A stretch of DNA of 64,000 nt, from positions 333 through 64,332 of the forward strand of contig JBBDJQ010000001.1 in NCBI GenBank assembly GCA_040879765.1. The letters run 5' to 3'. Position numbers and translations under genes: made by a program. Below are positions 3,931 to 47,490 of this stretch, piece by piece; the stretch's first letter is position 1; every line of letters begins with the position of its first letter. Source of the stretch: Candidatus Pacearchaeota archaeon (GTDB lineage Archaea > Nanobdellota > Nanobdellia > Pacearchaeales > GW2011-AR1). The notes below the pieces were generated by a model that saw only the letters and a list, made by a program, of their open reading frames with translations, was not told the origin of the DNA and made no database searches.

Positions 3931-3931
3931 T

Positions 3932-29743: not shown

Positions 29744-31594
29744 TTATTTTCCAATTTCTTTAAGTCTCTTTAGAACATCGTCTAATTCTCCTCTTGGTTT
29801 TTGTGGAGATGTCCTTGGAGGATTTGGTCTTGTTGCAGGGAGTATTGGTGCTTTTTGGACATTTCTTCTTATTGGTCTCCTTAATAATCTGGAAGGTCTT
29901 GACATTGGCCTTTGAAAAGGTCCTTTTTTGTCTTTTGAAAATTTAGATTTCATTCTAAAAAATAAAACTTTTAAATTCTCTCTGAAAATTATTGCCAATA
30001 CAACCAAGATTATCAAAATGAGCAACACCAAAATCCAAACTAATGAACTTCCCCCAGAACTTGAATCAGATTCAGGTAAACAGCAAGCATCGGAACTAAA
30101 AGAACAACTTAGACTAAAAGATTCTTCTTCTCCTACCTGGCATCCATTGACTCTGCATTCTCCTCCTGAGGATTCACAAGCTCCTTCACTGCCCGAGGGA
30201 GGCGCTTGACAAGAACCTGAAACACAGCAACTTTGTCCGAAAGACAATCCTGAAGCTGGAACTTCGGCAGAACCTATACCGACGCAAACCTGACTCTGGG
30301 AGCAAACATTTCCTCCTTGGTCAGAACATGTTTCAATTGGGGTTTGTTGGGAACAACACACAAAACTTCCAGAGCAAGAATAACCTGGAAGTATATCTCC
30401 ATTGCAATTTATGCTGGAAGAACAAAAGTATCCTGAATTTTGACAATTAAGATTTGGAACGTCACTCCCATTACCTATTCCTCCAGAACCATTTCCTTGG
30501 AAGAATGAATCTCTTGGCCAAAGAGAATTCAAGATGAATGCTGTGTTTCTTATATTTCCAGAATCCCAACATCCATCCGGGTTTTGTGCTTCGTTCAAAA
30601 GCCAATCTTCCGAATCTTTTTTTTGTAAAACTTCTTCAAATTGAAGTGGAAAAAGTGCAAGAGCAGTTCCATAAAATCTATCATTGAGAGAAGTCCACCA
30701 TTTATTATTAATTTGTTTTGCCAAAAGTTGATTTCTGTAGGTTGTATCTCCAGTTATAAAATAAAGGAAAGCTTCTGGAAGAAGATTTTGATTATCTTCT
30801 GCAGACGCCGTTAGGTATTGTAAATAATTTGAAGTTTCCTCTCCAGCAATGCTCAATGCCATTGAGGCCCAGAGACTTCCTTCATAATTACAAGAACCAA
30901 CAGATGTTGAAAAGCAAAGCGAATTTATTTTTTCTGTTGTCACTCCTCCTGCAGATGCTGAAGAGGTTTGTTCAGAAACATAAATAGTTTCTGAATCTTG
31001 AGTTTGATAAAGTAAGGTTGTGATAAAAGATTGGTCACAAGAAATTGTAAAGTTTGCGTCGTAACAAGTAGGATTTATTTCCATCCAATATCCCCCAGAA
31101 TCTATTGAAAGACAGCCTCCACCAATTAAAGAGTCTATTGATTTGTCTTCGTTAATTTCAATAGTATTTGAATTTACTGAGATCACTTCACAAGCAGTTG
31201 CCTCTTGAGAATCTATTTCTAAAAACCAATCCAATCCTTCAGAAGGCCTTTCCTGGTCTAAAATCCAATCTCTGGCTTCATCCGAATCTGAACGAGAATT
31301 TCCTAATCCGATTAAAATTTGGGAAGTATATTTTAAATCTCCAAGGTATCTTGGATTGTCTAGAGCTTCATCTCGGCATTGTCCTATCGCTAAAAAAGAA
31401 AAAGTCAACTCCTCTGGAGAAAGATTTTCACATTCTCTTTCTTCGATTTCATCATTCAAACAAGAGTAAGCAGCATTAATTTTACAATTCTCATCTTCAT
31501 CCCCACATCCTTCTGCCTGGGCATTAATTAATGAGAGAGCTAAAACAGATACAAACAAAACTAATGTAATCAATAAAAGCCTCTTTTTTACCAT
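29744..31594 (-). CDS. surface protein: alpha/alpha-toroid-like domain, three Cys-rich repeats, TM
   Basis: WLLNEAQNPDGCW (QW-like motif); CxxxG(G)xC...CC repeats; Pro/Arg-rich cytoplasmic tail. Confidence 0.8.
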   Translation of the reverse strand: MVKKRLLLITLVLFVSVLALSLINAQAEGCGDEDENCKINAAYSCLNDEIEERECENLSPEELTFSFLAIGQCRDEALDNPRYLGDLKYTSQILIGLGNSRSDSDEARDWILDQERPSEGLDWFLEIDSQEATACEVISVNSNTIEINEDKSIDSLIGGGCLSIDSGGYWMEINPTCYDANFTISCDQSFITTLLYQTQDSETIYVSEQTSSASAGGVTTEKINSLCFSTSVGSCNYEGSLWASMALSIAGEETSNYLQYLTASAEDNQNLLPEAFLYFITGDTTYRNQLLAKQINNKWWTSLNDRFYGTALALFPLQFEEVLQKKDSEDWLLNEAQNPDGCWDSGNIRNTAFILNSLWPRDSFFQGNGSGGIGNGSDVPNLNCQNSGYFCSSSINCNGDILPGYSCSGSFVCCSQQTPIETCSDQGGNVCSQSQVCVGIGSAEVPASGLSFGQSCCVSGSCQAPPSGSEGACESSGGECRVNGCQVGEEESFSLSCSFSSDACCLPESDSSSGGSSLVWILVLLILIILVVLAIIFRENLKVLFFRMKSKFSKDKKGPFQRPMSRPSRLLRRPIRRNVQKAPILPATRPNPPRTSPQKPRGELDDVLKRLKEIGK

Positions 31595-31628: not shown

Positions 31629-32882
31629 TCATGAACCTTTTCCAAGATTTTTTTTCACAATATAGTTTACAGGATTTTTGTAACGCATTTCTTCCTCGGT
31701 TGGATTTATTCCAATGCCTTTGTAATAATCTTTGTCAAAATTTGGGGGGAGTACTGTTTTATTTCTATAGCCCCAGGACAATTGCGCTTTAAGATAGCCC
31801 TCTTTAAGAGGCACGGAATTTTTTTTATTCCAATCTTCAATTCTTTTTTCTAATTCCTCTCTTTCCATTCCAATAGAACGAAATAAATTCAACAGGATAA
31901 ATAACGCCCTTTTTCTTCCATCAACAACTCCATTCAAAATTTTTTGAATGCTTGGTGGAAACATTTTATCAGATAGATTTTCGATTTTTATTGGCTTGTA
32001 ATCTTTTTTTGAAGTTTTTTCTTTTTCCTCTTTTTCATTTGGTTTATTTTCTGAATGCCAATCCAAAGCCTGAAGCAAGAGTTCTCGGGCTTCCCCTTCT
32101 TTGCAATCTGGAGTAAACTCTCTTGGTTCTGAAACTTTTAATGGGCTTGCATCTTTTGGTTGGAAATTTTCTATCTCTGACAAATAAAGTACTATGCTTG
32201 CCAAGGCTGTTTTTTCATGTAAAGAATAAGGCATCCTAAATAAGTGTCTTGGAGAAACCAAAATTATGTCCGGCATAACTTCCTTTGTTACTTCAAAATC
32301 CCTTATGTATTTGTTTCCCACCGTTAGTGCAGAAACTTCTTTTATTAGGAGGGGTTTTGTTTTTTCAGAAATATAGTGTGTTAAAATTCTTGGCCACTCT
32401 GGAAACATATCTGAGGTCTTAACAGAATTTATTTCCTTAGGGAAAGCCTTCCAAGGGATTATCATATGAAATCCCTTGCTTCCTGAGAATTTGATTCCTA
32501 CATTTTTTACGCCATGGAAATCTAAAACTTTCATAATTTGTTGAACAAGAACTTTACTATAATCTAGATATTTGCTATCTATATCAATAAGGAGGTCCCA
32601 GCCAGTTCTTAATTCATTTAGCTCTTCTTTTGACATGTCTGTGGAAATATTTAAGGGATTTGCCCAGATTTCTTGAGAGCAATGGAAGCTTGTTGTTCCT
32701 TTTTTAACCATTTCAAAGATGTCTCCCAAATATTGAAAGCTGTCTGGTCTTTTCCCAAAAGAATCAAAATATCTTGCAGAAATTTCACGACTTTTGGAAA
32801 AATTAAATATGGTTTCCTGGACTTTTGGGTTTGAATAATACAAAGAAGTCAACTTCCTAACCCTCTCTTCTTTGGTATCCAT
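31629..32882 (-). CDS. fused archaeo-eukaryotic primase (PriS plus PriL C-terminal-like domain)
   Basis: WDLLIDID, KFSGSKGFH, R.PYSLH; C-terminal FPP, DGRKR.LF.L, PPN, KNPVNY. Confidence 0.9.
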   Translation of the reverse strand: MDTKEERVRKLTSLYYSNPKVQETIFNFSKSREISARYFDSFGKRPDSFQYLGDIFEMVKKGTTSFHCSQEIWANPLNISTDMSKEELNELRTGWDLLIDIDSKYLDYSKVLVQQIMKVLDFHGVKNVGIKFSGSKGFHMIIPWKAFPKEINSVKTSDMFPEWPRILTHYISEKTKPLLIKEVSALTVGNKYIRDFEVTKEVMPDIILVSPRHLFRMPYSLHEKTALASIVLYLSEIENFQPKDASPLKVSEPREFTPDCKEGEARELLLQALDWHSENKPNEKEEKEKTSKKDYKPIKIENLSDKMFPPSIQKILNGVVDGRKRALFILLNLFRSIGMEREELEKRIEDWNKKNSVPLKEGYLKAQLSWGYRNKTVLPPNFDKDYYKGIGINPTEEEMRYKNPVNYIVKKNLGKGS

Positions 32883-32985: not shown

Positions 32986-33717
32986 ATGCTAGTTAAATTA
33001 GATAATCCTTTAGCCTTTACAAGAGTTGTTGAAATTATTTCGGACTTAGTAACTGAGGTTAGGATAAAGTTTAATGAATACGGTATGAGTATTGTTGCTA
33101 TGGATCCTGCAAATATTTCTATGGTTATTTTCAAGTTGCCGAAGAGTTCGTTTTCGCAATTTGAGGTTTTAGAGGAAGAAACCTTGGGAATTAATTTGAT
33201 TAATTTGAAACAGGTTTTAAGAAGATGTTCGTCAAGTTCTTCATTAGTTCTTGAGAAAAAAGAAAACTTTCTTGCCCTAGATATACATGATAGAATAAGA
33301 AGAAATTTCAACCTTAATTTAATAGAGGTTGAGGGAGAAGAAAGAGAAGTTCCTTCTAGTTTTGAATTTGTTGCCAAGGTTGAGATTAATTCAGTTGATT
33401 TGGTTAACTCCGTGGATGATTGTGCCATTGTTGCAGATGCATGTTCTTTTGAAATAAAATCTGGGAAATTCATAATTGAAGCCAAATCTCTTAATTCTGC
33501 AATGTCTGAATTTTCTGGAGATGAAGCTGCAATTCAGGCAGAAGATTGTAAATCGAAATATAGCCTAGAATATTTGCAGAAATTCATGAAGGGCGCAAAA
33601 CTTTGTGAAAAAACTAATCTAAGTTTTGCGGGAGACCACCCACTTAGGATGGATTTCAAAACTCCAGAAATGGAATTAAGTTTTATTCTTGCTCCAAGAG
33701 TTGAGACTGAAGACTAG
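32986..33717 (+). CDS. pcn: PCNA sliding clamp
   Basis: AMDPANISMV, SKYSLEYL.K, FILAPRVE. Confidence 0.96.
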   Translation: MLVKLDNPLAFTRVVEIISDLVTEVRIKFNEYGMSIVAMDPANISMVIFKLPKSSFSQFEVLEEETLGINLINLKQVLRRCSSSSSLVLEKKENFLALDIHDRIRRNFNLNLIEVEGEEREVPSSFEFVAKVEINSVDLVNSVDDCAIVADACSFEIKSGKFIIEAKSLNSAMSEFSGDEAAIQAEDCKSKYSLEYLQKFMKGAKLCEKTNLSFAGDHPLRMDFKTPEMELSFILAPRVETED

Positions 33718-33808: not shown

Positions 33809-34561
33809 ATGGAAAAAAGAGGGCAGGTTACCATCTTCATAATTATTGCTATAGTTGTTGTTTCTTTGGGTGGTTTGGCTTATTTTGTTTTCCCTCAAAT
33901 TCAAACAAACATATCTGGAGAAGATAATAATCCAGTTTCATTTATAGAAAATTGCTTAGAAGAGGATTTGGAAGAAACAATAGAATCTGTTTCTCTTCAG
34001 GGAGGAAAGTTGGAGCCTGTGAATTCTTTCTTATATGAAGATGTGGAAATTGAATACCTTTGTTATATTTGGGAAAGCTATCAACCCTGTGTTGTTCAGA
34101 ATCCTTTATTGAGACAAAGTGTGGAGGGTGAAATCAAAAAAGGAATTGAAACAAAGGTTGAAAGCTGTTTTGCCGAGATGAAAAATAATTTTGAATCTCA
34201 AGGATATTCTGTCCAATATCAACCAGGAGGATTGGATGTAACACTTTTGCCTCAAAGAATAGTTACAAGCATGAACAAAGATTTAACTTTGAGTAGAGAT
34301 GAAACTGAAACTTATGAAAAAATAGAAATTGTTGTGAACAATAATCTTTATGAACTTGTGGGAATTGCAGGTAGTATTATAGAAAGTGAATCAAAATATG
34401 GTAACGCGGAGACAACTATTTACATGGATTATTACAAGAATCTAAAGGTTGAAAAGCATACTCAAGAAGGTGGAACTAAAATTTATATTTTAACAAACAG
34501 AGATGGCGGAGAAAAATTCCAGTTTGCTTCAAGGTCTATTGTCTTCCCACCAGGAATATAA
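33809..34561 (+). CDS. pilin-like protein with class III signal peptide
   Basis: MEKRG/QVTIFIIIAIVVV. Confidence 0.8.
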   Translation: MEKRGQVTIFIIIAIVVVSLGGLAYFVFPQIQTNISGEDNNPVSFIENCLEEDLEETIESVSLQGGKLEPVNSFLYEDVEIEYLCYIWESYQPCVVQNPLLRQSVEGEIKKGIETKVESCFAEMKNNFESQGYSVQYQPGGLDVTLLPQRIVTSMNKDLTLSRDETETYEKIEIVVNNNLYELVGIAGSIIESESKYGNAETTIYMDYYKNLKVEKHTQEGGTKIYILTNRDGGEKFQFASRSIVFPPGI

Positions 34562-34562
34562 A

Positions 34563-36140
34563 ATGAAAAAAGAAAAAAACCAAAATGAAAATTTGAGATT
34601 ATTATTTGGAATTTTGACTTTTATTTTTATTTTTGCTTTTAGTGTTAATTTTATTTCAAGTCAATCAACTGTGAGTTATTGTGCTGAAAGAACTTTAGAT
34701 GGTGCATGGTGTCAAAACGTTCCTCAATCCCAAGTAGATGAAAATTATAGATCTGCTCCGACCTCTTGCCAATCAACTGCTTTCTGTAAATTGGGAACTT
34801 GTGTGAATAGTCAGGAAGGAACTTGTTTTGATAACACTCCTCAAATAATCTGTGAGCAACCAGAAGGAGAGATTACTGGAGGTGTTTGGTTTGATGCAGA
34901 AAAAGAATCTTTACCTCAGTGTTCTTTGGGATGTTGTCTTCTTGGAAATGAAGCTTCTTTCGTTACACAGGCAAGATGTAATCAACTTTCTTCTGATTAT
35001 GGTTTAGACATAAATTATAGGCCAGATATAAATTCCGAAGTTGCTTGCATAGCTACTGCAGTTTCTGATAAGAAAGGAGCTTGCGTTTTTGAAAGAAATT
35101 TTGAAAGGACTTGTCAAGCCACAACTGGAGCAAAATGTCAAGAATTAGCCCTTACTGAAGAAAATGTTGAGTTTCATCAAGGATTATTATGTTCTGCTGA
35201 GGAACTTGCAACAAATTGTGGCCCAAGCGAAAATACAATTTTGGTTGATGGGAGAGATGAAGTTTTCTTTAGAGATACTTGCGGAAACGTTGCAAATATT
35301 TATGATTCTTCAAGACAAGATGATGCAAACTATTGGAGGGATATTTTTGAAAAAAGTGAGAGTTGTGGGTTTTTGGATTCAAGAGGAAATGCTGGTTCTA
35401 AAAGTTGTGGAAATTGTGATTACTTCCTTGGTTCAACTGGAAAAACTTATGACAGGTCTGTGGATCCTCAAAGCCCAGATTTTGGAGATTATATTTGTAG
35501 AGATTTAGGTTGTGAATACCAGGGAGAAGATTTCCAGCACGGAGAAACTTGGTGTTCTTCAAACTCTAAGAATGGTGAAAGTTTGCCTGGAGAAAGACTT
35601 TCTAGGTTGGTCTGCTATAATGGGGAAGTCACAACTGAAAGTTGTTCTGGATTTAGGCAGGAAATTTGTGTGGAAGGTGAGATTAATGGTTTTTCAGCAG
35701 CCGCATGCCGAGTGAATAAATGGCAGGATTGTATGGTCCAAGGAACACAAAAAACTTGCGAGGATTCAACTTTAAGGGCTTGTCAATGGATAGAAGGGCA
35801 AAGATTTGATAGAGATACAACCCAGGAAGAGGAGCAAGGCTCATGTGTTCCAAAATATCCTCCAGGGTTTGATTTTTGGAATCCTAACACTGATGCAGCT
35901 TCTTTATGTTCTTTAGCAAATAATGACTGTGTCGTAAGATGGGAAAAATCAGGAACAGATATTTTAACAGGAGGAGGTTATGATTGTGTAGAAAACTGCC
36001 ATTGTCTCGAGGATTCTTGGGGGGAATTGCAAAATAATATTTGTTTAGCTCTTGGGGATTGTGGAGCAACCCTTAATTACATTGGTGGAAAAGGAGCCAA
36101 TGAATTAGATGATTTGGTAGTAATAGGTCCTAGAGATTAA
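34563..36140 (+). CDS. secreted Cys-rich protein
   Basis: signal/anchor followed by a densely Cys-rich domain (C.LG.C, GCC); likely ATG at 34563. Confidence 0.85.
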   Translation: MKKEKNQNENLRLLFGILTFIFIFAFSVNFISSQSTVSYCAERTLDGAWCQNVPQSQVDENYRSAPTSCQSTAFCKLGTCVNSQEGTCFDNTPQIICEQPEGEITGGVWFDAEKESLPQCSLGCCLLGNEASFVTQARCNQLSSDYGLDINYRPDINSEVACIATAVSDKKGACVFERNFERTCQATTGAKCQELALTEENVEFHQGLLCSAEELATNCGPSENTILVDGRDEVFFRDTCGNVANIYDSSRQDDANYWRDIFEKSESCGFLDSRGNAGSKSCGNCDYFLGSTGKTYDRSVDPQSPDFGDYICRDLGCEYQGEDFQHGETWCSSNSKNGESLPGERLSRLVCYNGEVTTESCSGFRQEICVEGEINGFSAAACRVNKWQDCMVQGTQKTCEDSTLRACQWIEGQRFDRDTTQEEEQGSCVPKYPPGFDFWNPNTDAASLCSLANNDCVVRWEKSGTDILTGGGYDCVENCHCLEDSWGELQNNICLALGDCGATLNYIGGKGANELDDLVVIGPRD

Positions 36141-36147
36141 ATCAATT

Positions 36148-36663
36148 TTACTCACAAGTTTGTTTATATCTTGTAACCTCAATAGATTCTGCACCACAAC
36201 TACTTCCAGCAAACTCAAAATAATGAATGTCTCCTTGAGGGGAGCATTCTCCTGAAAGCTCATCATTTCCTATATATTGCCCAATATCACAACCTGAAAA
36301 ATCAAGTACAGGGTCGCTCCACACATATTTTGGTGGACAATTATCTCCATTGCTTCTGCAGAATTGATCTATATTTACGCCTTGGAAGGTTTGTGCACTG
36401 TCTGCCGAATCTGAGTTTGTTGCTGTTGTTGCCGTTGTTGCAGAATCTGCGGTTATTGCATGTGCTGCATTATCAATTATTCCATCTGAATTTGCATCAA
36501 TTGAAGCAGAACCTGTTTCGTCTGTTGTAACTTGTTGTAATGGATGCCAACCAATATTTGAACTAAAAGGAGTCACTGCAAAAACTGTTAGAATTCCAAA
36601 AGTTAAAAAAATAGCTGTTAAAAAATAAAAGTATTTTTTTTCTATATTTATTTTTATTTTCAC
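36148..36663 (-). CDS. secreted/anchored fibre-like protein, tandem copy 1
   Basis: signal peptide; AxxAxxAD-like repeats; FCRSNGDNCP; GTG start. Confidence 0.75.
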   Translation of the reverse strand: MKIKINIEKKYFYFLTAIFLTFGILTVFAVTPFSSNIGWHPLQQVTTDETGSASIDANSDGIIDNAAHAITADSATTATTATNSDSADSAQTFQGVNIDQFCRSNGDNCPPKYVWSDPVLDFSGCDIGQYIGNDELSGECSPQGDIHYFEFAGSSCGAESIEVTRYKQTCE

Positions 36664-37120
36664 TTTAGTTACTCACAAGTTTGTTTATATCTTGTAACCT
36701 CAATAGATTCTGCACCACAACTACTTCCAGCAAACTCAAAATAATGAATGTCTCCTTGAGGGGAGCATTCTCCTGAAAGCTCATCATTTCCTATATATTG
36801 CCCAATATCACAACCTGAAAAATCAAGTACAGGGTCGCTCCACACATATTTTGGTGGACAATTATCTCCATTGCTTCTGCAGAATTGATCTATATTTACG
36901 CCTTGGAAGGTTTGTGCACTGTCTGCCGAATCTGAGTTTGTTGCTGTTGTTGCCGTTGTTGCAGAATCTGCGGTTATTGCATGTGCTGCATTATCAATTA
37001 TTCCATCTGAATTTGCATCAATTGAAGCAGAACCTGTTTCGTCTGTTGTAACTTGTTGTAATGGATGCCAACCAATATTTGAACTAAAAGGAGTTGCTGC
37101 AAAAACTGTTAGAATTCCAA
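36148..37120. repeat. about 450-bp tandem duplication, period 521 bp
   Basis: 36148-36573 identical to 36669-37094; near-identical to 36599/37120. Confidence 0.95.
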
Positions 37121-37184
37121 GTATTGATATAAATATTGCTAAGAAAAAAACGCTCCTCTTTTTCAAATCTATTTCGATTTGCAT
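36669..37184 (-). CDS. secreted/anchored fibre-like protein, tandem copy 2
   Basis: identical to copy 1 after about residue 30. Confidence 0.8.
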   Translation of the reverse strand: MQIEIDLKKRSVFFLAIFISILGILTVFAATPFSSNIGWHPLQQVTTDETGSASIDANSDGIIDNAAHAITADSATTATTATNSDSADSAQTFQGVNIDQFCRSNGDNCPPKYVWSDPVLDFSGCDIGQYIGNDELSGECSPQGDIHYFEFAGSSCGAESIEVTRYKQTCE

Positions 37185-37276
37185 ATTTTTTATTAAGCTT
37201 TAGGGCTTTTAAATTTTGCTGTTTAAGAAAACTTTGGAAAAGAAAAACTTAAATAGTTTTTTCTTATCTTCTATCC

Positions 37277-37990
37277 ATGAATAGATTTAGAAACCTTACA
37301 AATTATGGATTGATTTCAGTTAGCGCATTTCTTGGAGGATGTGAATCTGGAGGAATAAATTTGGAAGTTGTGGAAAAAATCATAAGAGATGTTGGGCCAA
37401 CTGCCGTGGCGACTATTCTAAAAAAAGATGCTATTTCAAAGGGAGATGTGAATGAAGCCATCATTTTTGACACGGTTGAAGATTATAGTCGTACAAAAAT
37501 GATTGAAAGGGCCAGAGAAAATGAAATACTAGAAAGGAAGGTAAGAGTGACGCATGTTGTGGAAAGGGAGCCTTACGAGACTGTGGAAAGGGAGCCTACA
37601 GAAAGAGTTGCCTTTGTTAATGAAGGCAGAAGTTTCCAAGGAAGACCAATTAATTCTTATCAGGGACATGTGAAACAAGGAGGAGGGAACGGATTTGATA
37701 TTAATCAAGGGACATTATCGATTTTTAATGAAGGAATTTATTGGTTTGATAAAGGGGGGAGAAGCAGGGGAATAGAGTATGGCCAAATCTCAGACATCTC
37801 ATCAATAGGAAGTCAATCTGTGCTCCAAATAGAAACATCAGATGGAAAATTCTCAAAAATCTATTTTGATTCAGATACAAATGTTTCTGACATAGAAATG
37901 AAAATAGAATCAGCGCAAAAAAAATATTTTTCGGGTAGAAGAAAAACAGATTTTGAAAGTTTGAAGAGTTTAGAAATCTTTGAGAAATAA
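37277..37990 (+). CDS. hypothetical lipoprotein-like protein
   Basis: FLGGC lipobox-like motif; VEREP repeated twice. Confidence 0.65.
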   Translation: MNRFRNLTNYGLISVSAFLGGCESGGINLEVVEKIIRDVGPTAVATILKKDAISKGDVNEAIIFDTVEDYSRTKMIERARENEILERKVRVTHVVEREPYETVEREPTERVAFVNEGRSFQGRPINSYQGHVKQGGGNGFDINQGTLSIFNEGIYWFDKGGRSRGIEYGQISDISSIGSQSVLQIETSDGKFSKIYFDSDTNVSDIEMKIESAQKKYFSGRRKTDFESLKSLEIFEK

Positions 37991-38037
37991 TTTGAAAGTT
38001 CAAGAATATTTATAAATAACATTTCTGTATCTAGTTT

Positions 38038-40422
38038 ATGAAAAAGGGGAGTGATTATCTTAAATTTATTTCATTATTCCAGATTATTTTAATGATTAGT
38101 TTGACTTTTTCTTTTTCTTTTATTCTTTCATCTACTTTTGTTGGTGCTGCGGAAAGTATAGCGCCCACACAAACCGCACAGGGTTCTTATACTGTTGAAT
38201 TTGGAGATACTTTAAGTGAGATTGCAGCACGATACAGCACCACTCCCAACACAATCCTTGCTCTGAATAGTTTTTTAATAAGTGAAGATAGACCGAGTTG
38301 TTTTGATAGTCTACAGGGGGTAGATTGTATTTTTCCAGGAGATAAATTAACTATACCAATTTCTACTACGACTCAAGATTCTCAAGCAACAGAAGAAAGG
38401 GTTGGAAATTTTATCACCAAACTTACTGGTAAAGCTGAAGATCTGGGTATAACCCCAACCCCCACTACAAATCCTGTTTCTTTTGATTGTAAGGGGGACA
38501 TATGTCAAATTCCTGGAAGTGAATTATCATACGATTTGGGAAATAGCACTGGGCCTGAAGGTGAAGGGTTTTGTGGAGGAGCTGCAGGAACTGGATTTTC
38601 AAATTGTAGTTTTTTTGGTATTGAAGGTGGCTGGGGTTATTTTGCAGCAACAGCAGTTTATGCATATGCTATATATACAGGAATCCAATGGGTAGGAAGT
38701 GCTTTGGGAATAGATGATTCAACTACTGATGCAATAGCAAATGGGGCAACTGCAGCATATCTGGTAACACAAATTGCTAGAGTTCTTGCTCAAGAATCGC
38801 TTCTTGGATCAACAGTGGGAGCATGGGCTGCTTCTTTTTTGGCGATTCCTGGCATAGGGTGGATTGTTTTTGCCGTGGTAGCTGTTCTTTCATTCAAGAA
38901 AGAAAAAGAACAAACAGTTACATTTACTTGCTTGCCCTGGCAGGCTGAATCAGGAGGAGATAATTGTAAATTATGTAATAATCAAGATGTTCCTTGTAGT
39001 GAATATCAATGTAGAAGTCTTGGAAAGGGATGTGAATTAGTTAACAAGGGAACAAGTGCTCAAATGTGCGACTACATATATGATGGAGATGTTATCCCTC
39101 CAGAAATTGAGCCGTTGGAAAGCGCTTTGTTGGATGGATATATTTATACACCAGATGGAGCAGTTTCTCCACCAGATAGGGGAGTAAAGATAATAAATCA
39201 AAACTCTCCCGAAAATTGTGCTCCCGCATATACTCCTTTAAGTTTTGGAATCCAAACTAATGAACCAGCAGCATGTAAGATAGATGTTTTAAGAAAAAGT
39301 AATTTTGAAGATATGAGAGCATTCTTGAGTGCAGGATTGTTAAGATATAATCACACCTATTCATTCAGTCTTCCAAGTCCCGAGGCTCTTGCTGCAGAAA
39401 ATATTACTTTAGAAAATGGGGGAGATTTCCAAATATATATGAGATGTGAAGATGCTAATGGAAATTCAAATCCTGCAAATTTCCAATTTAGATATTGTGT
39501 TGAAGAAGGACCAGATACAACCCCACCTTTCATTGTTACAACAAGTATAATAGATGGCTCGCCTATAGCCCATCAACAAAAATCAGCCGATATTTTACTT
39601 TATGTAAATGAGCCAGCAGAATGCAAGTGGGATCACCAAGATAGAAGCTATGATTTAATGTCAAATTCTCTTAGCTGCCAAACTGAAGTTGCAAGTTTTA
39701 ACTCTCAGGCAGTCTATACCTGTGACACTACCTTGGATGGTTTGAAAGATGAATTTAGTAACGAATTCTATTTCAGATGCAAGGATAAACCAGGATTCCC
39801 AGAAAATGAAAGAAATACTAATGAGGAATCTCACAAGCTTACTTTGATGGGAACTAGACCGTTGTTAATAAGCTCTGCATCTCCAAACAACGAAGTAGTT
39901 AGTGATTCCGCAAACGCTGTGAGCGTTCAATTAGAAGTTGAAACTTCCCAAGGATTCAAAGATGGAGAAGCACTTTGTAAATTTAGCGATACTGGAAATA
40001 GTGATGATTATTTACAATTCTTTGAAACAAACTCGCATTTGCATTCACAAGAACTATCCCTTGCAGAAGGCTCATATAATTATTTCATAATGTGCAATGA
40101 TTTAGGGGGAAATACAGACAATGTTGAAATTAATTTCGAAGTTGAAACAGATACTGATTCACCAAGCGTTGTAAGAGTATACAAGGAAGATAATTTCTTG
40201 AAGATTATAACAGATGAAGAATCCTTTTGTGTATATGTAGAAGAAATTGGATGTAGTTATCCATTTAAAGAAGGAACCAGTCTCACAACTACGAATAATT
40301 TTAATCACTTTTTGCGATGGAATCCTTCTGGTTCAGATTTGTATATAAAGTGTGAAGATAGTTTTGGAAATCAACCAGCCCCAAATCAATGTAACATTGT
40401 TGTTAAAGCAAGTCAATTTTAG
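38038..40422 (+). CDS. large secreted protein: LysM, Gly/Ala hydrophobic region, Cys-rich Ig-like repeats
   Basis: YTVEFGDTLSEIAARY...I.PGD.L.IP (LysM); IPGIGW region; repeated TNEPA.C, C.D..GN, D..PP modules. Confidence 0.85.
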   Translation: MKKGSDYLKFISLFQIILMISLTFSFSFILSSTFVGAAESIAPTQTAQGSYTVEFGDTLSEIAARYSTTPNTILALNSFLISEDRPSCFDSLQGVDCIFPGDKLTIPISTTTQDSQATEERVGNFITKLTGKAEDLGITPTPTTNPVSFDCKGDICQIPGSELSYDLGNSTGPEGEGFCGGAAGTGFSNCSFFGIEGGWGYFAATAVYAYAIYTGIQWVGSALGIDDSTTDAIANGATAAYLVTQIARVLAQESLLGSTVGAWAASFLAIPGIGWIVFAVVAVLSFKKEKEQTVTFTCLPWQAESGGDNCKLCNNQDVPCSEYQCRSLGKGCELVNKGTSAQMCDYIYDGDVIPPEIEPLESALLDGYIYTPDGAVSPPDRGVKIINQNSPENCAPAYTPLSFGIQTNEPAACKIDVLRKSNFEDMRAFLSAGLLRYNHTYSFSLPSPEALAAENITLENGGDFQIYMRCEDANGNSNPANFQFRYCVEEGPDTTPPFIVTTSIIDGSPIAHQQKSADILLYVNEPAECKWDHQDRSYDLMSNSLSCQTEVASFNSQAVYTCDTTLDGLKDEFSNEFYFRCKDKPGFPENERNTNEESHKLTLMGTRPLLISSASPNNEVVSDSANAVSVQLEVETSQGFKDGEALCKFSDTGNSDDYLQFFETNSHLHSQELSLAEGSYNYFIMCNDLGGNTDNVEINFEVETDTDSPSVVRVYKEDNFLKIITDEESFCVYVEEIGCSYPFKEGTSLTTTNNFNHFLRWNPSGSDLYIKCEDSFGNQPAPNQCNIVVKASQF

Positions 40423-40495
40423 AATAGGGATTTCTTTGCTTAACCTTTTTTAAGATAGCGGATAATTTTATAAGTTCTTTTCTTCTAAACTTCAC

Positions 40496-41002
40496 ATGAG
40501 GAGATTAAATCAAAAAGGGCAATTAAAAATATCATTCGGAACTATTTTCTCAATTATTTTAATAGTGATTTTTATTTCATTTGCATTTTACACAATTCAA
40601 AAATTTTTAGGTGTAAAGAATTCCATTCAACTTGGAAAATTCTCGGAAGATTTCCAAGAGGATGTTAACAGAGTTTGGAATAGTGCTCAAGGCTCTGAAA
40701 AAAAATCCTACTTCATTCCAAATGGGGTTAGGTTGGTTTGTTTTGCAGATTATCTTTCAAACGAGAGAGGGGAAAACAGCAACCTCTATGATGAATTTAT
40801 ACTTTCTTTCTATAATGAAGAAAATTTGTTTTTTTACCCCCGGGAATCTGCAGAAGGATTTGATTCTATTGAAATAAGAAATCTTAATTTGGACAAAATT
40901 ACTGAAATTAATAATCCTTATTGTATTGAAAATAAAAATGGCGTTGTAATTTTAACAATAAAAAAAGATTTCAACGAAAATTTAGTCACAATAACCGAAT
41001 AA
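40496..41002 (+). CDS. pilin-like protein with class III signal peptide
   Basis: QKG/QLKISFGTIFSIILIVIF. Confidence 0.8.
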   Translation: MRRLNQKGQLKISFGTIFSIILIVIFISFAFYTIQKFLGVKNSIQLGKFSEDFQEDVNRVWNSAQGSEKKSYFIPNGVRLVCFADYLSNERGENSNLYDEFILSFYNEENLFFYPRESAEGFDSIEIRNLNLDKITEINNPYCIENKNGVVILTIKKDFNENLVTITE

Positions 41003-41003
41003 A

Positions 41004-42002
41004 ATGAAAGGTAAAAAATTAAAAATTTTTAGCCATCATTTTTCTAAAACATGGGGGGAAGTGAAAGATAAAAAGGGGTTTCTTCAGATTTCTTTTGCTT
41101 GGCTTTTTGGAATAATTGTTGGAGGGTTTATTTTGTTCCTAGCTATTTATGCTTCTACTAAGATAATAGATGTACAAGAAACTAAAATTGACGCTCAAAC
41201 TTCGGAAGAAATTGGGGTGCTTTTAAATCCTTTAGAAACTGGTTTTGAAACTGGGAGGACTTCTTCCATAAACTTCCCCTCGGAAACAAGAATTCACAAT
41301 CGTTGCAGTAATGAGAGTTATTTTGGAAAACAAACAATAAAGGTTTCGCAAAAAATCTTTGATGATTGGACAGAGACAGATATAGAAGCTAATTTTAGAA
41401 ATAAACATATTTTTTCTAAGGGAAATGTTGAAGGAAAGAAATTTTTGCTTTTCTCAAAACCATTTGAATTTCCATACAAGGTTGCCGATGTTATTTACTT
41501 AACATCATCTGAAACTAATTATTGTTTCATGGATGCTCCGGAAGAAATTGAAGAAGAGCTTGAAAATTTAGGTCAAGAAAATATTTTTATTGGAGGTAAT
41601 TGCCCTGATTTGAGTCTTAAAGTTTGCTTTTCATCTGGGATAAATTGTGATATTGAAGTTAATTATGGTAAAAGTGGAGAGGTTCAAAAATCTGGAGAGA
41701 CCCTTTATTTTTATGAAGATTCTTTGATGTATGGTGCAATTTTTTCAGAGCCGGAAATTTATGAATGTCAAACCGAAAGACTTATTCAAAGAGCTGCAGA
41801 GTTGAACGATTTGTACTTAGAAAAATCTAATTTCCTTTCAATAAATGGCCCACAATGTTCAAATAATATTGGTCAGGATTTACTTGATTTGAAAAATATA
41901 GAAAACTCTTTTGATCATTCTTCAGATTTAAATGCTTTGATTATAAGTTTGGTTCGGCAAATTGATATCAAAAATGATTTGCAGGAGTGTGAATTATGGT
42001 AA
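41004..42002 (+). CDS. pilin-like protein with class III-like signal peptide
   Basis: KKG/FLQISFAWLFGIIVGGFIL. Confidence 0.75.
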   Translation: MKGKKLKIFSHHFSKTWGEVKDKKGFLQISFAWLFGIIVGGFILFLAIYASTKIIDVQETKIDAQTSEEIGVLLNPLETGFETGRTSSINFPSETRIHNRCSNESYFGKQTIKVSQKIFDDWTETDIEANFRNKHIFSKGNVEGKKFLLFSKPFEFPYKVADVIYLTSSETNYCFMDAPEEIEEELENLGQENIFIGGNCPDLSLKVCFSSGINCDIEVNYGKSGEVQKSGETLYFYEDSLMYGAIFSEPEIYECQTERLIQRAAELNDLYLEKSNFLSINGPQCSNNIGQDLLDLKNIENSFDHSSDLNALIISLVRQIDIKNDLQECELW

Positions 42003-42013
42003 TCATATTACGA

Positions 42014-42532
42014 ATGAAAAATAAAAAAGGGCAGTTGAAAATTCAGCAAATGGCATTTATGTTATTAGCGGTTACTTTGTTTTTTGCATTGGTTGGATTG
42101 TTGGTTTTATCTTTCCAGATTTCTAATTTAAGGGATACTGCAGGAACCTTGGAAGAAAGGAATGCTCTTTTGCTTGTAACTAAACTTTCAAATTCTCCAG
42201 AATTTTCCTGTGGAAGAGCTTTTGGAAATGCGAGAACAAATTGCATAGATGCTGATAAGGCAATGATTTTGAAATCTCAAATTTCGAAATATGATAGGTT
42301 CTGGGATGTAGAAGAAATAGAAATAAGAAAGATTTATCCTCCGCAAACAATTGATGAAGGATGTTCGTTTGAGAATTATCCAAATTGTAATTTGATAAAA
42401 GTTCTTGAAGGTTCAGGGAATAGCGTGGGATATTCCAATTTTGTTTCTTTATGTAGAAAGGAAAGAGTAAATGAAGAGATTCGAGATAAATGTGAATTAG
42501 CTAAATTGATAGTGAGTTATAATGCAGAATAA
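42014..42532 (+). CDS. pilin-like protein with class III signal peptide
   Basis: MKNKKG/QLKIQQMAFMLLAV. Confidence 0.8.
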   Translation: MKNKKGQLKIQQMAFMLLAVTLFFALVGLLVLSFQISNLRDTAGTLEERNALLLVTKLSNSPEFSCGRAFGNARTNCIDADKAMILKSQISKYDRFWDVEEIEIRKIYPPQTIDEGCSFENYPNCNLIKVLEGSGNSVGYSNFVSLCRKERVNEEIRDKCELAKLIVSYNAE

Positions 42533-42992
42533 AAAAGGGCAGGAAGAAATGGTTGGGTTTGCACTAATAATAATAGTTGTGTCTGTGATAATTCTTGCTT
42601 TTTTAGGATTGTCTTTGAGCGATGGAGAAAAAGAATCGGTTGAAAGTTATGAGGTAGAAAGCTTCATACAATCCTTTTTGCAATACTCTTCTAGTTGTGA
42701 AATTAATTCAAAAGTTTTGGAAATTGATGATTTAGTTAAAGAATGTTCGAGAGGAATTAATTGTGATTCTGGAGAAAATGCTTGTGAAATTCTTGAAGAA
42801 ACTATTGGGGAAATAAGTGAAGCAAGCTGGAGAGTTGAAAATGGAAGTTCGATTAGAGGTTATGAGTTGTTGATCAATTCTGCAAGTGAAAACCTTGTAA
42901 ACATTACAAAAGGAATTCAAACAGGCAATTCAAAGGGGGCAATACAATTCCTTCCAGATGGGATTGAAATTACATTTAAATCCTATTACTAA
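42522..42992 (+). CDS. pilin-like protein with class III signal peptide
   Basis: MQNKKG/QEEMVGFALIIIVV. Confidence 0.8.
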   Translation: MQNKKGQEEMVGFALIIIVVSVIILAFLGLSLSDGEKESVESYEVESFIQSFLQYSSSCEINSKVLEIDDLVKECSRGINCDSGENACEILEETIGEISEASWRVENGSSIRGYELLINSASENLVNITKGIQTGNSKGAIQFLPDGIEITFKSYY

Positions 42993-43339
42993 ATTTTTAC
43001 TGTGATTAAAACAGAATCTACAACAATTTCTGGCCGGTATCTTGTTCGATTTTTAGTTTTTTCGGAAATCAAATCTATGAATCCGAATCTTTCAAGCAAT
43101 TTTATGTCATCATTTACTGATTTAAATCCTCTTCCAAGAATTTTTGCCAATTCGTAGATTGAAGCAGGTTTTTTTGTCTTTATTACATGCAAAATTCTTG
43201 CTTTTTCATTGCTTAGAAGTTGCCTTAAAGCCAAAATTCCTGAAAAATCATAATCTTTCTTGGAGAAATTAGATTTTTTAAATACAGAAAAGTTACCTTC
43301 TTTCTCGGTTATTGTGATTTCTCTTGTTTTTGTGGTCAT
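42989..43339 (-). CDS. HTH transcriptional regulator
   Basis: LLSNEKARIL..IK...P.SIYELAK.LGR.FKSV..D.K.LE.FG; likely ATG at 43339. Confidence 0.85.
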   Translation of the reverse strand: MTTKTREITITEKEGNFSVFKKSNFSKKDYDFSGILALRQLLSNEKARILHVIKTKKPASIYELAKILGRGFKSVNDDIKLLERFGFIDLISEKTKNRTRYRPEIVVDSVLITVKI

Positions 43340-43629
43340 GTGATTAGCCATATATTTTGGCAATTACTTCCAAAAAGCTTATGGGGTTTATTTTTAAATA
43401 TATATCTATAATCTATATTTTATATATATGGTATTGATTAAAATATATACTAAATCTAAATACCATATATTAATAAATCTTCCTATTGATAAAAAGTGGT
43501 AGATTGTAATCTTGTTTTAGTAACACCAAAAGCTTTATAAATAAAGTTTATAAAACGGGCTATTTTAGAGAAATATTGTGATTTTATACAATAAGCTTTT
43601 TAAAGTAATATTGGTTCGGTTTTTTATTC

Positions 43630-43757: not shown

Positions 43758-46160
43758 ATGTTAAATTTTAGAAAAATATCGGCTATTGGAGTTAGTGCGC
43801 TTATGTTCGGATTGACTGCTGGAACCGCTGCTGCTGCAAATTACCCATCACCTTTTGTTGTTGGTGGAAATGCAGATGTAGCCATTGTTTATGGTACCGG
43901 AACTGGAGTTTCAGTTCTTGACGCTGTTGAAGCAGGTAATATACAAAGCAACCTGCAATCTTTCACGACTGGAACAGGATCCGGTGGTACTTCATCAATT
44001 GAAGGAGATGGAATACAGCTTCAAAGAAGCACAGATAAATTCAATCTTGGAGACAATATGAGTGCGTTCTACAGTACCCTTGATAGTGAAGAATTGACAG
44101 TAGTTCTAAAAGATGGAGTATACTACAATGACGCAAATGAGGATTTTGAGTATGAACAAGAGCTAACACTCCCAACGACTACTCAGATGACACACTTTAG
44201 GCACAGAGACTACAATGACTACGAGCCTACAATAGGCTTCCAGTTTGCAAGAGGTGATGCCATCCTTAACTACACTTTGGAGTTCACTCCAAATGATGCA
44301 GAAGGAAGTGCTGACCTTTCCGACTTTTCAAGCACATTTGTGGAAATTCTTGGAAAAGAATATTTCATATCTACTGTGACTGCAAGCGGAGATGAATGGA
44401 CCATGACCTTACTTGACTCAGCTTCTAAGACTACTCTTAACCAAGGAGAATCTACAACAGTAACTGTTGATGGAACTGCTTATACTATAAGTATACAAGC
44501 TATCTCTTCTACGGGAGCAATCTTAGTGGTTAATGGAGAAACCACAAATAGGCTTAATTCTGGAGATACACAAAAACTATCTGGAGGAACAGGACACATC
44601 GGTGTTACTGACTTTCAAGCTGCAGCATTCCAAGGAGATACTGCTTTTGTTGAATTTAGCTTAGGAACAGGTGAAATAGTTCTTGAAGATGGCACCGAAG
44701 TTGAAATAAACGGAGATGCTGTAAGTCAAATAGACAGATTCGACGATTTCAAACTTAATTCCTATATAGTTAATGCCACAACAAACATAGAGTCAATAAC
44801 TCTTGAATGGTTGGCTGACGATGATGTATTCTTGACGTCTGGAAACGATTTGGTTATGCCTGGATTTGGAGGTGTTAAACTTAGTATGAATGACTTTGTT
44901 GTAAATACTAGAGAAACAGTTACCTTCAACGCGGGAGATCCATTTAGTTTGACTACAAATGTTAAAAACGGGCCTGTTACATTAGATTTATTCTATTTGA
45001 ACAGTACTGAAAATGGATTTGGATCAAATCTTGGTACAAGTGCTACACAACATCTAATAACTAACGAGACTGGAGGACCAAATTCAGTTGTTGCACTTAG
45101 TTTGGTAAACGAAACTTATTTCGTTGCTTCCTGGATTTCAGGAAGAGACTCAGAAACTTATGTTTATGAGTTAACTAACCTTAAGAACAATAACGGTAAG
45201 AACGAGACAACTTTGACAAGCCTTTCTGGCGGTTCAAATATTGTCTTCAGTGAAGTTACAGACAACAAAGACGTTGGAAGATTAAGGTTAACCCTTGACG
45301 CTGCTAACGTAATTGATGAGACTGCAACTGTTAGAGTAACTCCTGTAAGTGGTGGAGATGTCTACACAGACAGAGTATTCACGGCTGAAGGTTTGCAATT
45401 CAAACTTCCAGTAAGTGTTACAAATTCTTCATCCTTAGAAAATGGAGTATGGCTAGGTAATTCAAGTTCGCCAACAGCTGCAAACACAACTTTCTCTTTC
45501 AACTTTACAGAAGAAGATAGAGATGGAAATGTTGCTTCAGGAAGCTCATTCCAGATTGGAGTCAGTATAGATTCTGACGACGGAATTGAGGGAGATGTTG
45601 AGCCAGTTGAAGTAACTATGCTTCAAATTGGTAGGACTGGAGATGCCTATGTTGGCTATGTCCAATCTGATCTTGCATCAATGGTTGAATGGACAAAAGA
45701 TTCCAGTGGACTTGATGCAATGCGGGTTACATACCATGGAAGCGAAGCTTCCGCAGCTGTGTTTGTAGGTGAATTAGATGCCACATTATCTGGAGGTTCT
45801 TCAGGAGGTTCTGCCTCACTTGGAGAAGTTTTAGTTAAAGACACAGAAGTCAGCTCAGTTAGTTCAAAGAACTTAATTGTGGTTGGTGGAAGTTGTATAA
45901 ACTCAGTTGCTGCAAGAGTGCTTGGATCTGGATGTGGAGCAAGCTTCACTCAAACTACAGGAGTTGGTTCAGGCCAATTCTTGATACAAAGTGTTGGTGA
46001 TGTTTACTCAACTGGAAAAGTTGCGCTAGTTGTTGCTGGTTACGAAGTTGCTGATACCGCTAATGCGGCTAAATATCTAAGGACACAATCCATAGATACT
46101 GCTGCTGGTAAAAAATACATCGGAACAACTTCAACAAGTGCCGAACTTCAAGTTGCTTAA
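43758..46160 (+). CDS. S-layer protein
   Basis: signal peptide; NYP.PFV...IVYG; C-terminal NLIVVGG..INSVA and LVVAGY...DT; many N-x-S/T sites; strong SD. Confidence 0.88.
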   Translation: MLNFRKISAIGVSALMFGLTAGTAAAANYPSPFVVGGNADVAIVYGTGTGVSVLDAVEAGNIQSNLQSFTTGTGSGGTSSIEGDGIQLQRSTDKFNLGDNMSAFYSTLDSEELTVVLKDGVYYNDANEDFEYEQELTLPTTTQMTHFRHRDYNDYEPTIGFQFARGDAILNYTLEFTPNDAEGSADLSDFSSTFVEILGKEYFISTVTASGDEWTMTLLDSASKTTLNQGESTTVTVDGTAYTISIQAISSTGAILVVNGETTNRLNSGDTQKLSGGTGHIGVTDFQAAAFQGDTAFVEFSLGTGEIVLEDGTEVEINGDAVSQIDRFDDFKLNSYIVNATTNIESITLEWLADDDVFLTSGNDLVMPGFGGVKLSMNDFVVNTRETVTFNAGDPFSLTTNVKNGPVTLDLFYLNSTENGFGSNLGTSATQHLITNETGGPNSVVALSLVNETYFVASWISGRDSETYVYELTNLKNNNGKNETTLTSLSGGSNIVFSEVTDNKDVGRLRLTLDAANVIDETATVRVTPVSGGDVYTDRVFTAEGLQFKLPVSVTNSSSLENGVWLGNSSSPTAANTTFSFNFTEEDRDGNVASGSSFQIGVSIDSDDGIEGDVEPVEVTMLQIGRTGDAYVGYVQSDLASMVEWTKDSSGLDAMRVTYHGSEASAAVFVGELDATLSGGSSGGSASLGEVLVKDTEVSSVSSKNLIVVGGSCINSVAARVLGSGCGASFTQTTGVGSGQFLIQSVGDVYSTGKVALVVAGYEVADTANAAKYLRTQSIDTAAGKKYIGTTSTSAELQVA

Positions 46161-46263: not shown

Positions 46264-46854
46264 ATGAGAAAACTAATTTCCAAAGAAGCTGAAGCAAAAA
46301 AGAAAAAGAAGAACCAAATTACTGTGGGTGTGGTTTTGATATTCCTTATGCTGTTTAGTACATTAGGTTATGCGTTTCAATTTATAGGAGACAATGATGG
46401 GACAGGAATTTTACCAGATTCTGAAACTTTTAATTATAATGGTTTTGAATTTAGGGAACAAAGTGGTTTTTTTATATTAAGCAAAGATGGTAAAAATTTT
46501 ATATTTAGAAATCATCCTGCAAATGTTCCAAATTTTAATTTAGAATTGAATTCTTTTGAAAGTTATTTAGATAGACCTCTTTACATAAACTCCGAAAGTC
46601 CTGGAGCTTCTTCAGAAATAAGAACAAATCTAATTCAATTTGTAGATGGTTTGAAAGAAGGTTGTTTTAAAGATAATTGTAAAGAAGAGTTTGAAAAAAT
46701 CACTTGTGAAGACAACTTCATCCAAATAAGAATTAACGAAAACGGAGAAAATTTAATGACTAAAGAAGGGAATTGTGTATTTATAGAAGGCAAGGAAGAA
46801 GATTTGGATTTGCTTGCTGATTCTTTCCTGTTTGAAATAATTGGTGTGAGTTAA
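46264..46854 (+). CDS. membrane-anchored hypothetical protein
   Basis: N-terminal TM; Cys-containing domain resembling the next gene's C-terminus. Confidence 0.75.
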   Translation: MRKLISKEAEAKKKKKNQITVGVVLIFLMLFSTLGYAFQFIGDNDGTGILPDSETFNYNGFEFREQSGFFILSKDGKNFIFRNHPANVPNFNLELNSFESYLDRPLYINSESPGASSEIRTNLIQFVDGLKEGCFKDNCKEEFEKITCEDNFIQIRINENGENLMTKEGNCVFIEGKEEDLDLLADSFLFEIIGVS

Positions 46855-46884
46855 GTTTAAAAATTAAATTCATCTAAAATTCAA

Positions 46885-47490
46885 ATGGCATCACAAAAAA
46901 CAAAACAGATTAATGCTGAAAACAAAATCTTAAGGAATTTCTTCATTTCTATTTTTGTTTTTATTCTCTTTATTTTAGCCGCTTATCTTTTCATAGATAA
47001 TTTAAGACACTTCGAATATGAAGGAGTAGAATTCCAAACAGTAAGTTTCTGTGATGCCGAACCATGTTTAGTTTTATATAAAACCACCTTTCCAGTAATT
47101 ACAGGGGAAGGAAGAACGGCAGATATGTATCTTAGAAATGACCCTCGAGAATTGAAAGATATAGAATTTAATGGAAGTATGAACCTTTTCGGGGAATTTA
47201 TTCTTGATTCTACAAATGATTTTAATTGTGAAGGGGATGGAGTTATTGCAATTGCGAATATGGTTCAATTCTATGAACTCTTTGGAGTAAATATTTTCAA
47301 GAATGATTCAATTTCTTGTGATGAAACTTCAGAGCATACTTATGTAAGAATAACTGAAGGCAATGAGACAAGAGTTCAACAAACTGGATTATCTTGTTAT
47401 GATATAGAAATAAAAAATTGTGAAATTCTTGAAGGTACTGAAAGATTCTTGTTAGAATCTTTTGTTAAGGTTAACAAATTATTTTTTTGA
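46885..47490 (+). CDS. membrane-anchored hypothetical protein
   Basis: N-terminal TM; RNDPR; Cys pairs. Confidence 0.75.
   Translation: MASQKTKQINAENKILRNFFISIFVFILFILAAYLFIDNLRHFEYEGVEFQTVSFCDAEPCLVLYKTTFPVITGEGRTADMYLRNDPRELKDIEFNGSMNLFGEFILDSTNDFNCEGDGVIAIANMVQFYELFGVNIFKNDSISCDETSEHTYVRITEGNETRVQQTGLSCYDIEIKNCEILEGTERFLLESFVKVNKLFF

Follow-up and report, generated by a model that had tools for sequence, protein, structure and literature searches.

A cluster of seven genes at positions 33809-42992 of a 64-kb stretch of DNA from a Candidatus Pacearchaeota archaeon (the whole stretch, G000:C1:333-64332, is henceforth referred to as the window) is best read as one representative of an old and as yet unnamed group of cell-envelope genes that Pacearchaeota-type archaea have in common. 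The cluster encodes five pilin-like proteins and two cysteine-rich proteins. Its products, known here through genes and structural models, may form a pilin-based stem with a membrane-anchored, disulfide-rich adhesin, a reading to which a probability of about 0.5 is assigned. The genome comprises 525,751 bp in two contigs and is 93% complete. Close homologues of proteins encoded in the window carry the source labels Candidatus Pacearchaeota or Nanoarchaeota, and an archaeal large-subunit (LSU) rRNA and an archaeal RNase P RNA are present in the window. The genomes of Pacearchaeota-type archaea are among the smallest known. A life in attachment to hosts is assumed for these archaea; to our knowledge, no attachment structure has yet been assigned to them.

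The pilin-like proteins, referred to as pil250, pil168, pil332, pil172 and pil156, are encoded in the same orientation, and in each of them a class III-type motif is followed directly by about 20 hydrophobic residues. These five N-termini had been reported in a first-pass annotation of the window and were confirmed on the plus strand at the same coordinates, with conservation in orthologues (Table 1). The motif is kept in 16-27 orthologues per pilin-like family, with only Gly, Ala or Ser at position -1 and mostly Gln at +1, as is expected of the substitutions at prepilin peptidase sites. The presence and conservation of the class III signals support a pilin-like identity for all five sequences, each of which also contains an even number of Cys residues. 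The pilin genes are spaced in an operon-like manner, with gaps of 1-2 nt or overlaps, and pil156 overlaps pil172 by 11 nt. When all open reading frames (ORFs) of the 526-kb genome were scanned for the class III motif with a loose regular expression, 19 matches were obtained, four in the main pilus locus described below and six in the 9.2-kb stretch of the cluster. The six comprise the five pilin-like genes and the larger, 794-residue Cys-rich protein. Its candidacy as a sixth class III protein was set aside: its own site reads V-G-A/A, the N-termini of its family end in A-x-A-like sequences typical of Sec signals, and an ordinary Sec signal is the more likely identity.

The structural model of pil250 has a predicted local distance difference test score (pLDDT) of 91.6 and a predicted template modelling score (pTM) of 0.80, and shows a helix at residues 3-27, a disordered linker at residues 29-38 and a novel alpha/beta globular domain. 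An MltG-like lytic transglycosylase identity was also considered for this protein, on the lead of a weak TIGR00247 match (E 0.037) and an invariant Glu194, and was dropped since the confident model showed no match to such folds.

The two Cys-rich secreted proteins that are bracketed by pilin genes, namely cys525 and the 794-residue protein, were likewise found as first described, with the Cys counts listed in Table 1. In many genomes a second module is present, consisting of a pil250-type gene and then a gene for a protein of 1,200-1,350 residues. All nine of the long paralogues examined combine an N-terminal cys525-like domain, hydrophobic segments and an immunoglobulin (Ig)-like core in a single chain. 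This fusion indicates that cys525 and the 794-residue protein are halves of one unit, with cys525 corresponding to the N-terminal "head" domain, and the 794-residue protein to the C-terminal half, of fused giants of about 1,250 residues. The unit, whether split or fused, is referred to below as the giant.

The Cys-rich modules noted earlier in the C-terminal part of the 794-residue protein are Ig-like in the AlphaFold model, in which residues ~300-794 form about five beta-sandwich domains (pLDDT 80-93). Every match returned by a Foldseek search with the whole model of this protein was a generic Ig/FN3 array of eukaryotic origin, and none had a translocator-like fold; matches as generic as these are uninformative on its function. 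The profile of cys525 gave nothing significant against Protein Data Bank (PDB) sequences (best E 5.8), and the 1,629 members of its family are all unnamed and without a Pfam family. Conservation along the 794-residue protein is uneven, with mean identities to the window's copy of 17% in the head, 22% in the hydrophobic segment and 53% in the core. Head length ranges across the family from about 20 to about 310 residues, and the number of Cys residues in the core is 21 in 90 of 96 members. A conserved stalk with a variable head, together with the tandem paralogues described below, points to a binding function.

The distribution of the cluster was determined in an order-level survey of 151 genomes (69 of them high-quality) and in a phylum sample of 301 genomes, and gene order was compared in 20 loci of 20 kb around matches to the 794-residue family within the order and in a further 12 loci drawn from the other families of the class. 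The 794-residue protein has at least 209 database relatives at E <= 0.001, which are 45-55% identical to it over the C-terminal ~75%. Its family is found in 137 of the 151 order genomes and in 67 of the 69 high-quality ones, and a profile search of the family matched 148 genomes of the phylum sample, a count that includes a weak match in genome G387. Strong matches outside the order are nearly all long fused forms, often two or three in tandem. The seven genes occur in the order pil250, cys525, 794-type, pil168, pil332, pil172, pil156 in 16 of the 20 order loci, the partial loci being L024, L029, L030 and L031. In the 12 other-family loci the order is PCNA, (giant), pil250, giant, pil168, pil332, pil172, pil156, then the gene of a protein that is S-layer-like or of similar size, and a p196-like gene; eight of them show pil250 and the fused giant adjoining at least three of the four remaining pilins, and a ninth is cut after pil332. 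The pil250-type gene directly precedes the giant in most loci, second modules included, and loci L028 and L039 each contain one giant without it. Although gene loss in the order is extreme, hardly any of its genomes lacks the cluster, which is therefore probably central either to the cohesion of the envelope or to the holding of a partner.

Between the head and the core of the 794-residue protein lies the Gly/Ala-rich hydrophobic stretch ending in FLAIPGIGWIV that the first-pass annotation had singled out. The stretch is present as described: Gly and Ala make up 34% of residues 175-288 vs 15% of the whole protein, and FLAIPGIGWIV begins at residue 267. Its standing as a special feature was not upheld, as the segment is family-wide and occurs in the fused forms as well. 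With an internal hydrophobic segment defined as a 19-residue Kyte-Doolittle mean >= 1.5, 48 members have two segments, 47 have a single one, seven have three and 16 have none. The distribution of Cys residues is informative on topology. There are 4.2 Cys per 100 residues in the core and 0.16 in the hydrophobic segment, and the head has an even number of Cys in 89 of 93 members, of which 53 have Cys-free heads; among the 40 Cys-containing heads, 36 are even. By these Cys-pair statistics the head and the core both look extracellular. Both parts would then face the oxidising outside, and the segment is probably a two-pass hairpin anchor in the archaeon's own membrane, with its middle helix as a cytoplasmic or interfacial loop. 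A protein fixed in this way to the cell that makes it cannot be carried at the end of a long pilus.

The LysM-like domain reported near the N-terminus of the 794-residue protein is real. It matches Pfam PF01476 with 35.7 bits (cut-off 20.9, E 8.5e-9), and AlphaFold models the region as beta-alpha-alpha-beta, with strands at residues 48-52 and 103-107 and helices at 59-65 and 70-81 (pLDDT ~75). The Pfam match is partial (residues 51-77, profile positions 1-27 of 43) because a Cys-containing loop of about 18 residues interrupts the domain. In a Pfam domain census of the best 120 members of the family, LysM was found in three members, Big_13 in 66 and DUF4625 in 25, and no other head domain was identified. 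LysM is, as judged by this census, a rare lineage-specific module in a swappable, hypervariable N-terminal head. The first-pass annotation had asked whether LysM is such a module within a conserved gene order, and the synteny is strongly conserved. Given the rarity of LysM, binding of N-acetylglucosamine (GlcNAc) through it is not the conserved function of the family; the ligand in this lineage is nevertheless probably a GlcNAc-containing glycan.

A direct contact between two of the pilin-like proteins is predicted. The globular parts of the four small pilins pil168, pil332, pil172 and pil156 were submitted to complex prediction as four chains, in three runs and with three controls. The score was 0.82 in the three runs, compared to 0.02 for the best control. 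The confident interface is formed by pil332 with pil172 and is abolished when pil172 is replaced; at least 62% of the contacts agree between runs, and the partners have a pLDDT of at least 81. Of 157 solved complexes, 116 attain the score mark, compared to 2 of 215 mismatched pairs; this calibration is only approximate for the present job, which used its own alignments and four chains. These predictions support a binding of pil332 to pil172; pil168 and pil156 are taken up below.

No pilus ATPase, platform protein or peptidase is encoded within the window, and it had been proposed that these would act in trans. The genome does contain such machinery outside the window. The main pilus locus (G000:C1:131,538-140,825, ~97 kb from the cluster) encodes a 762-residue ATPase, a 722-residue polytopic protein, seven small class III-type proteins with KKGQ-type N-termini, and an A24 peptidase. 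The genome has one T2SSE ATPase (PF00437, 56.6 bits) and one A24 peptidase, of 283 residues (PF01478, 54.5 bits, G000:C1:140010), and the A24 peptidase family is found in 148 of the 151 order genomes. A PF00482 platform was not matched anywhere in the genome; the 722-residue protein encoded after the ATPase gene has eight hydrophobic segments and no Pfam family and is a candidate platform. As a separate observation, standard platform and pilin models miss most of the main pilus locus.

From the motifs, domains, synteny, gene fusion and machinery observed directly above, we infer the following course of events. The single A24 prepilin peptidase would cut the five class III signals, and the processed pilins would form a short stem by means of their hydrophobic N-terminal helices and globular domains. 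This stem may be assembled by the only pilus ATPase and platform of the genome, ~97 kb away. The giant would be exported by Sec and then held in the cell's own membrane by its Gly/Ala-rich helical hairpin, where it would be in contact with the pilins. From there it would project its stalk, which is conserved and disulfide-bonded and has about five Ig-like domains, together with the 525-residue Cys-rich domain and the fast-evolving N-terminal head. The head would determine what the cell sticks to, in this lineage through the LysM module.

Table 1 Features of the cluster and of the genes next to it. Positions are those of the window; a slash marks the class III site.
Feature	Position	Strand	Description
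pil250	33809-34561	+	250 aa; class III site MEKRG/Q; 4 Cys
cys525	34563-36140	+	525 aa; Sec signal; secreted; 39 Cys (7.4%); no Pfam family
794-aa protein	38038-40422	+	27 Cys; signal/anchor helix 1-37, variable head, hydrophobic segment, Ig-like core
LysM domain	38179-38358	+	residues 48-107 of 794-aa protein; inserted Cys loop
Gly/Ala-rich hydrophobic segment	38629-38901	+	residues 198-288; modelled helices 198-222, 227-253, 258-285
Conserved core	38929-40422	+	residues 298-794; small Cys knot and about five Ig-like beta-sandwich domains; 21 Cys
pil168	40496-41002	+	168 aa; class III site QKG/Q; small; 2 Cys
pil332	41004-42002	+	332 aa; class III site KKG/F; 8 Cys; largest pilin-like protein
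pil172	42014-42532	+	172 aa; class III site KKG/Q; 6 Cys
pil156	42522-42992	+	156 aa; class III site KKG/Q (G/QEEMVGF); 4 Cys
PCNA gene	32986-33717	+	directly upstream of cluster
Tandem 171-aa genes	36148-36663, 36669-37184	-	local insertion; 154/171 residues identical
237-aa protein	37277-37990	+	lipobox-like LGGC near N-terminus; no family match; local insertion
Helix-turn-helix (HTH) regulator	42989-43363	-	Pfam HVO_A0114, 58 bits; conserved neighbour within order
S-layer-family protein	43758-46160	+	PF05124; only such match in genome
p196 and p201	46264-47490	+	conserved; membrane-anchored; 4 and 6 Cys; downstream of S-layer gene

Several results weigh against a pilin-based stem with an anchored adhesin. 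Curated pilin and archaellin hidden Markov models of Pfam and NCBIfam gave no match to the pilin-like proteins at E <= 0.1, and profiles of pil332 and pil250 searched against PDB sequences found no solved pilin relative (best E none and 0.25, respectively). The pil250 model had no Foldseek match at E <= 0.001, and in VIA-align its best hit, a gp25-like protein with a Z of 6.0, is no clear fold match; the pilins 4d40, 2ret and 7b7p reached a Z of only 4.2-4.4 over residues 147-247. In the four-chain prediction no confident contact was obtained for pil168 or pil156, which is no evidence against their binding. No phmmer match at E <= 10 links the pilin-like proteins of the cluster with those of the main pilus locus, and that locus, having seven pilin-like genes of its own, may have no need of the cluster's. 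With respect to the anchor, the three helices of the hydrophobic segment are modelled at low pLDDT (41-73), and charge leaves the positive-inside rule undecided, with Lys and Arg at 6.5 per 100 residues both before the segment and in the loop, and with 15.8 Lys and Arg and 15.3 Asp and Glu per 100 residues after the last helix. In these tiny genomes PCNA, primase and other unrelated neighbours also keep their places, so that synteny alone overstates functional linkage. Finally, the near-universal occurrence of the family, its highly conserved core and its association with the single S-layer gene of the genome would suit a housekeeping role in the envelope just as well as adhesion.

Such a role is the strongest alternative and is rather unlikely, though by no means negligible: the pilins and the giant would make up a constitutive envelope scaffold that tethers or spaces the S-layer, and no adhesin would be involved. 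By comparison with known systems, the giant would correspond to a SlaB-type stalk of the Sulfolobales and the pilins to the S-layer tethers ArlF/ArlG of the archaellum, in which membrane-anchored beta-sandwich stalks or class III-like N-terminal helices reach the S-layer. As in S-layer stalk and tether systems, the cluster genes adjoin an S-layer gene. The cluster lies directly upstream of the only PF05124 gene of the genome; an S-layer gene follows the pilin quartet in most order loci, and in other families its place is taken by a protein that is S-layer-like or of similar size. The S-layer protein itself lacks a strong C-terminal anchor (one weak segment at residues 706-724, Kyte-Doolittle 1.47), and the near-universal occurrence and strongly conserved core of the family are as a scaffold would have them. 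In addition, S-layer-like proteins are regular members of archaeal pilus loci in the available text of a published census (PMC4858521). A hypervariable head with an occasional LysM is, however, unexpected for a pure scaffold, and the tandem paralogous giants of many genomes suggest a diversified binding function. There is no sequence match to SlaB or ArlF/ArlG either, and, unlike those proteins, the giant has an internal rather than a C-terminal anchor, a variable head and an expansion of paralogues.

The first-pass annotation had itself proposed a pilus-tip apparatus, in which minor pilins display the LysM protein, the protein binds a GlcNAc-coated, possibly bacterial partner, and the hairpin enters the membrane of that partner. 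This is now considered improbable. A tip complex that inserts into the partner membrane is its weakest part, and none of the results speaks for the insertion itself. The class III signals, the pilus machinery in trans, the genuine LysM domain and small-xxx-small motifs in the hydrophobic segment all agree with it, as does a four-gene pilin set with a predicted heterodimer, which recalls bacterial minor-pilin tips. Pacearchaeota are also enriched in the >2.5 um fraction, which was read as host attachment in the part of the preprint available here (bioRxiv 10.1101/2020.05.14.094862). Against the tip stand the scarcity of LysM in the family, the A-x-A-like end of the giant's Sec-type N-terminus, and the generic Ig arrays obtained from the fold search. 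The segment, moreover, is family-wide and lies between two Cys-paired and apparently extracellular parts, as is predicted for an anchor in the cell's own membrane.

The likeness to bacterial minor-pilin systems can be stated more closely. The cluster shares with FimU/PilVWX-PilY1, GspHIJK and ComGD-G a (here putatively) co-transcribed set of four small pilins of which one is much larger (332 residues here), a heteromeric globular contact (predicted here) and a large Sec-exported partner encoded alongside. Homology to FimU/PilVWX, GspHIJK or ComGD-G was not detected, as there was no Pfam, NCBIfam or PDB sequence match and no fold match. The partner also differs from PilY1-type tips in being Ig-like with a membrane segment, in having no vWA domain or beta-propeller, and in being unlikely to travel on the tip of a filament. 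In the consulted sections of the reports on Streptococcus sanguinis PilB and PilC (PMC8179133, PMC9934059), a grafted binding module sets ligand specificity, as the LysM module may do here; the PilB and PilC modules are fused to a true pilin, whereas LysM here resides on a Sec-exported, anchored partner and in 3 of 120 members.

A more far-reaching version, which would be a long shot, is a class-wide host-contact machine of Pacearchaeota- and Woesearchaeota-type archaea. In such a machine the pilin stem would push the Ig stalk through the S-layer, the hypervariable head would pick the partner, and glycine-zipper-like helices would move out of the archaeon's membrane and open or fuse that of the partner. 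If true, it would provide the physical connection that is still lacking for nutrient theft by these archaea.

A pseudopilus machine, that is, a piston resembling that of type II secretion or competence which exports Cys-rich proteins or takes up DNA, is judged quite unlikely. In its favour, four small pilins without a clear major pilin resemble the GspH-K or ComGD-G sets, a single ATPase is shared, and the secreted Cys-rich proteins, whose genes lie next to those of the pilins, are cargo-like. ComEC (PF03772), however, was not found in the 93%-complete genome, the Cys-rich proteins bear their own Sec-type signals, and an archaeon without an outer membrane needs no type II secretion piston. Least probable of all is that the pilin and Cys-rich genes form no functional unit and are mere neighbours in the frozen gene order of reduced genomes, as PCNA, primase and other unrelated genes that hold their positions across the order (PCNA across the class) might suggest, since start and stop codons abut or overlap, a pil250-type gene precedes each giant in most loci, and the quartet stays beside the giant despite insertions or duplication of the giant.

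The preferred pilin-based stem with an anchored adhesin can be placed among known archaeal loci. In the accessible text of Makarova et al. 2016 (PMC4858521), archaeal pilus loci bring together, in one neighbourhood, several class III-signal proteins read as minor pilins, an "adhesin" that is large and has a signal peptide, an S-layer-like protein and many conserved cysteines, as the present cluster does. The machinery of the published loci consists of an ATPase, a TadC-like platform and a peptidase of the FlaK/PibD type. Here, in contrast, ~97 kb separate the genes of the pilins and the adhesin from those of the ATPase, the candidate platform and the peptidase, no protein matches a curated family, and the adhesin contains a hydrophobic hairpin within its chain and is made as one protein or as two depending on the lineage. 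The terms DPANN and Pacearchaeota have 0 occurrences in the text of that census as accessed. Saccharibacteria offer a parallel in biology: in the portions consulted of PMC9894109 and PMC11623550 they are ultrasmall, host-dependent cells with reduced genomes whose type IV pili are thought or shown to attach to the host. They are bacterial and have no counterpart of the Cys-rich giant in those portions, and the archaeal cluster is known here from its genes.

Type IV filaments are described as widespread except in Asgard and DPANN archaea in the available text of PMC13705601, and pilus components as missing in DPANN genomes in that of He et al. (bioRxiv 10.1101/2020.05.14.094862). Despite this stated rarity in DPANN, about twelve pilin-like genes have been retained in the 526-kb genome along with a pilus ATPase and an A24 peptidase, and so has the seven-gene cluster, none of whose proteins is recognised by a curated family. 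A full-text literature search, which covered articles and not the supplements of PMC13705601 (figure S10, DPANN loci), found no description of the cluster. The five putative cleavage sites, the predicted heterodimer, the split or fused protein pair and the swappable head are testable targets.

The ORF listing of 33809-42992 contains nine genes on the plus strand and two on the minus strand, with coordinates unchanged from those given earlier. Among sequencing runs listed as containing this stretch none is of RNA; the one listed is a DNA run, which may be the source sample. Three genes between the two halves of the giant (36148-37990) have no counterparts in the 20 order loci and are therefore regarded as a local insertion outside the conserved system. 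The tandem 171-residue genes in this insertion are the only copies in the genome and encode six Cys each; their 3' 300 nt are 100% identical, and the differences are confined to the N-terminal membrane helix.

Downstream of the cluster, pil156 is usually followed in order loci by an HTH gene, the S-layer gene and genes for two small membrane proteins. In the window the latter correspond to p196 and p201. In the p196 protein the helix is preceded by a conserved N-terminal KKKKNQ motif; this does not conform to a canonical class III site. Genes resembling p196 are found after the S-layer-like gene in other families too.

Upstream, PCNA directly precedes the cluster in most order loci and in several other families of the class (loci L016-L047), an unexpectedly stable pairing of a replication gene with envelope genes. 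Next to PCNA, a 417-residue primase is encoded on the minus strand (31629-32882); it matches the small-subunit family with 32 bits, and weak large-subunit and PriCT family matches in its C-terminal half suggest a fused primase. The complete archaeal LSU rRNA gene lies at 1090-3935 (+) and the RNase P RNA at 10452-10730. No small-subunit rRNA was matched within the 64-kb window, so the rRNA genes appear to be unlinked. A further Cys-rich surface protein, of 616 residues (29744-31594, minus strand), combines a signal peptide and 30 Cys with a strong membrane anchor at its C-terminus, and is conserved beside the primase gene in several relatives.

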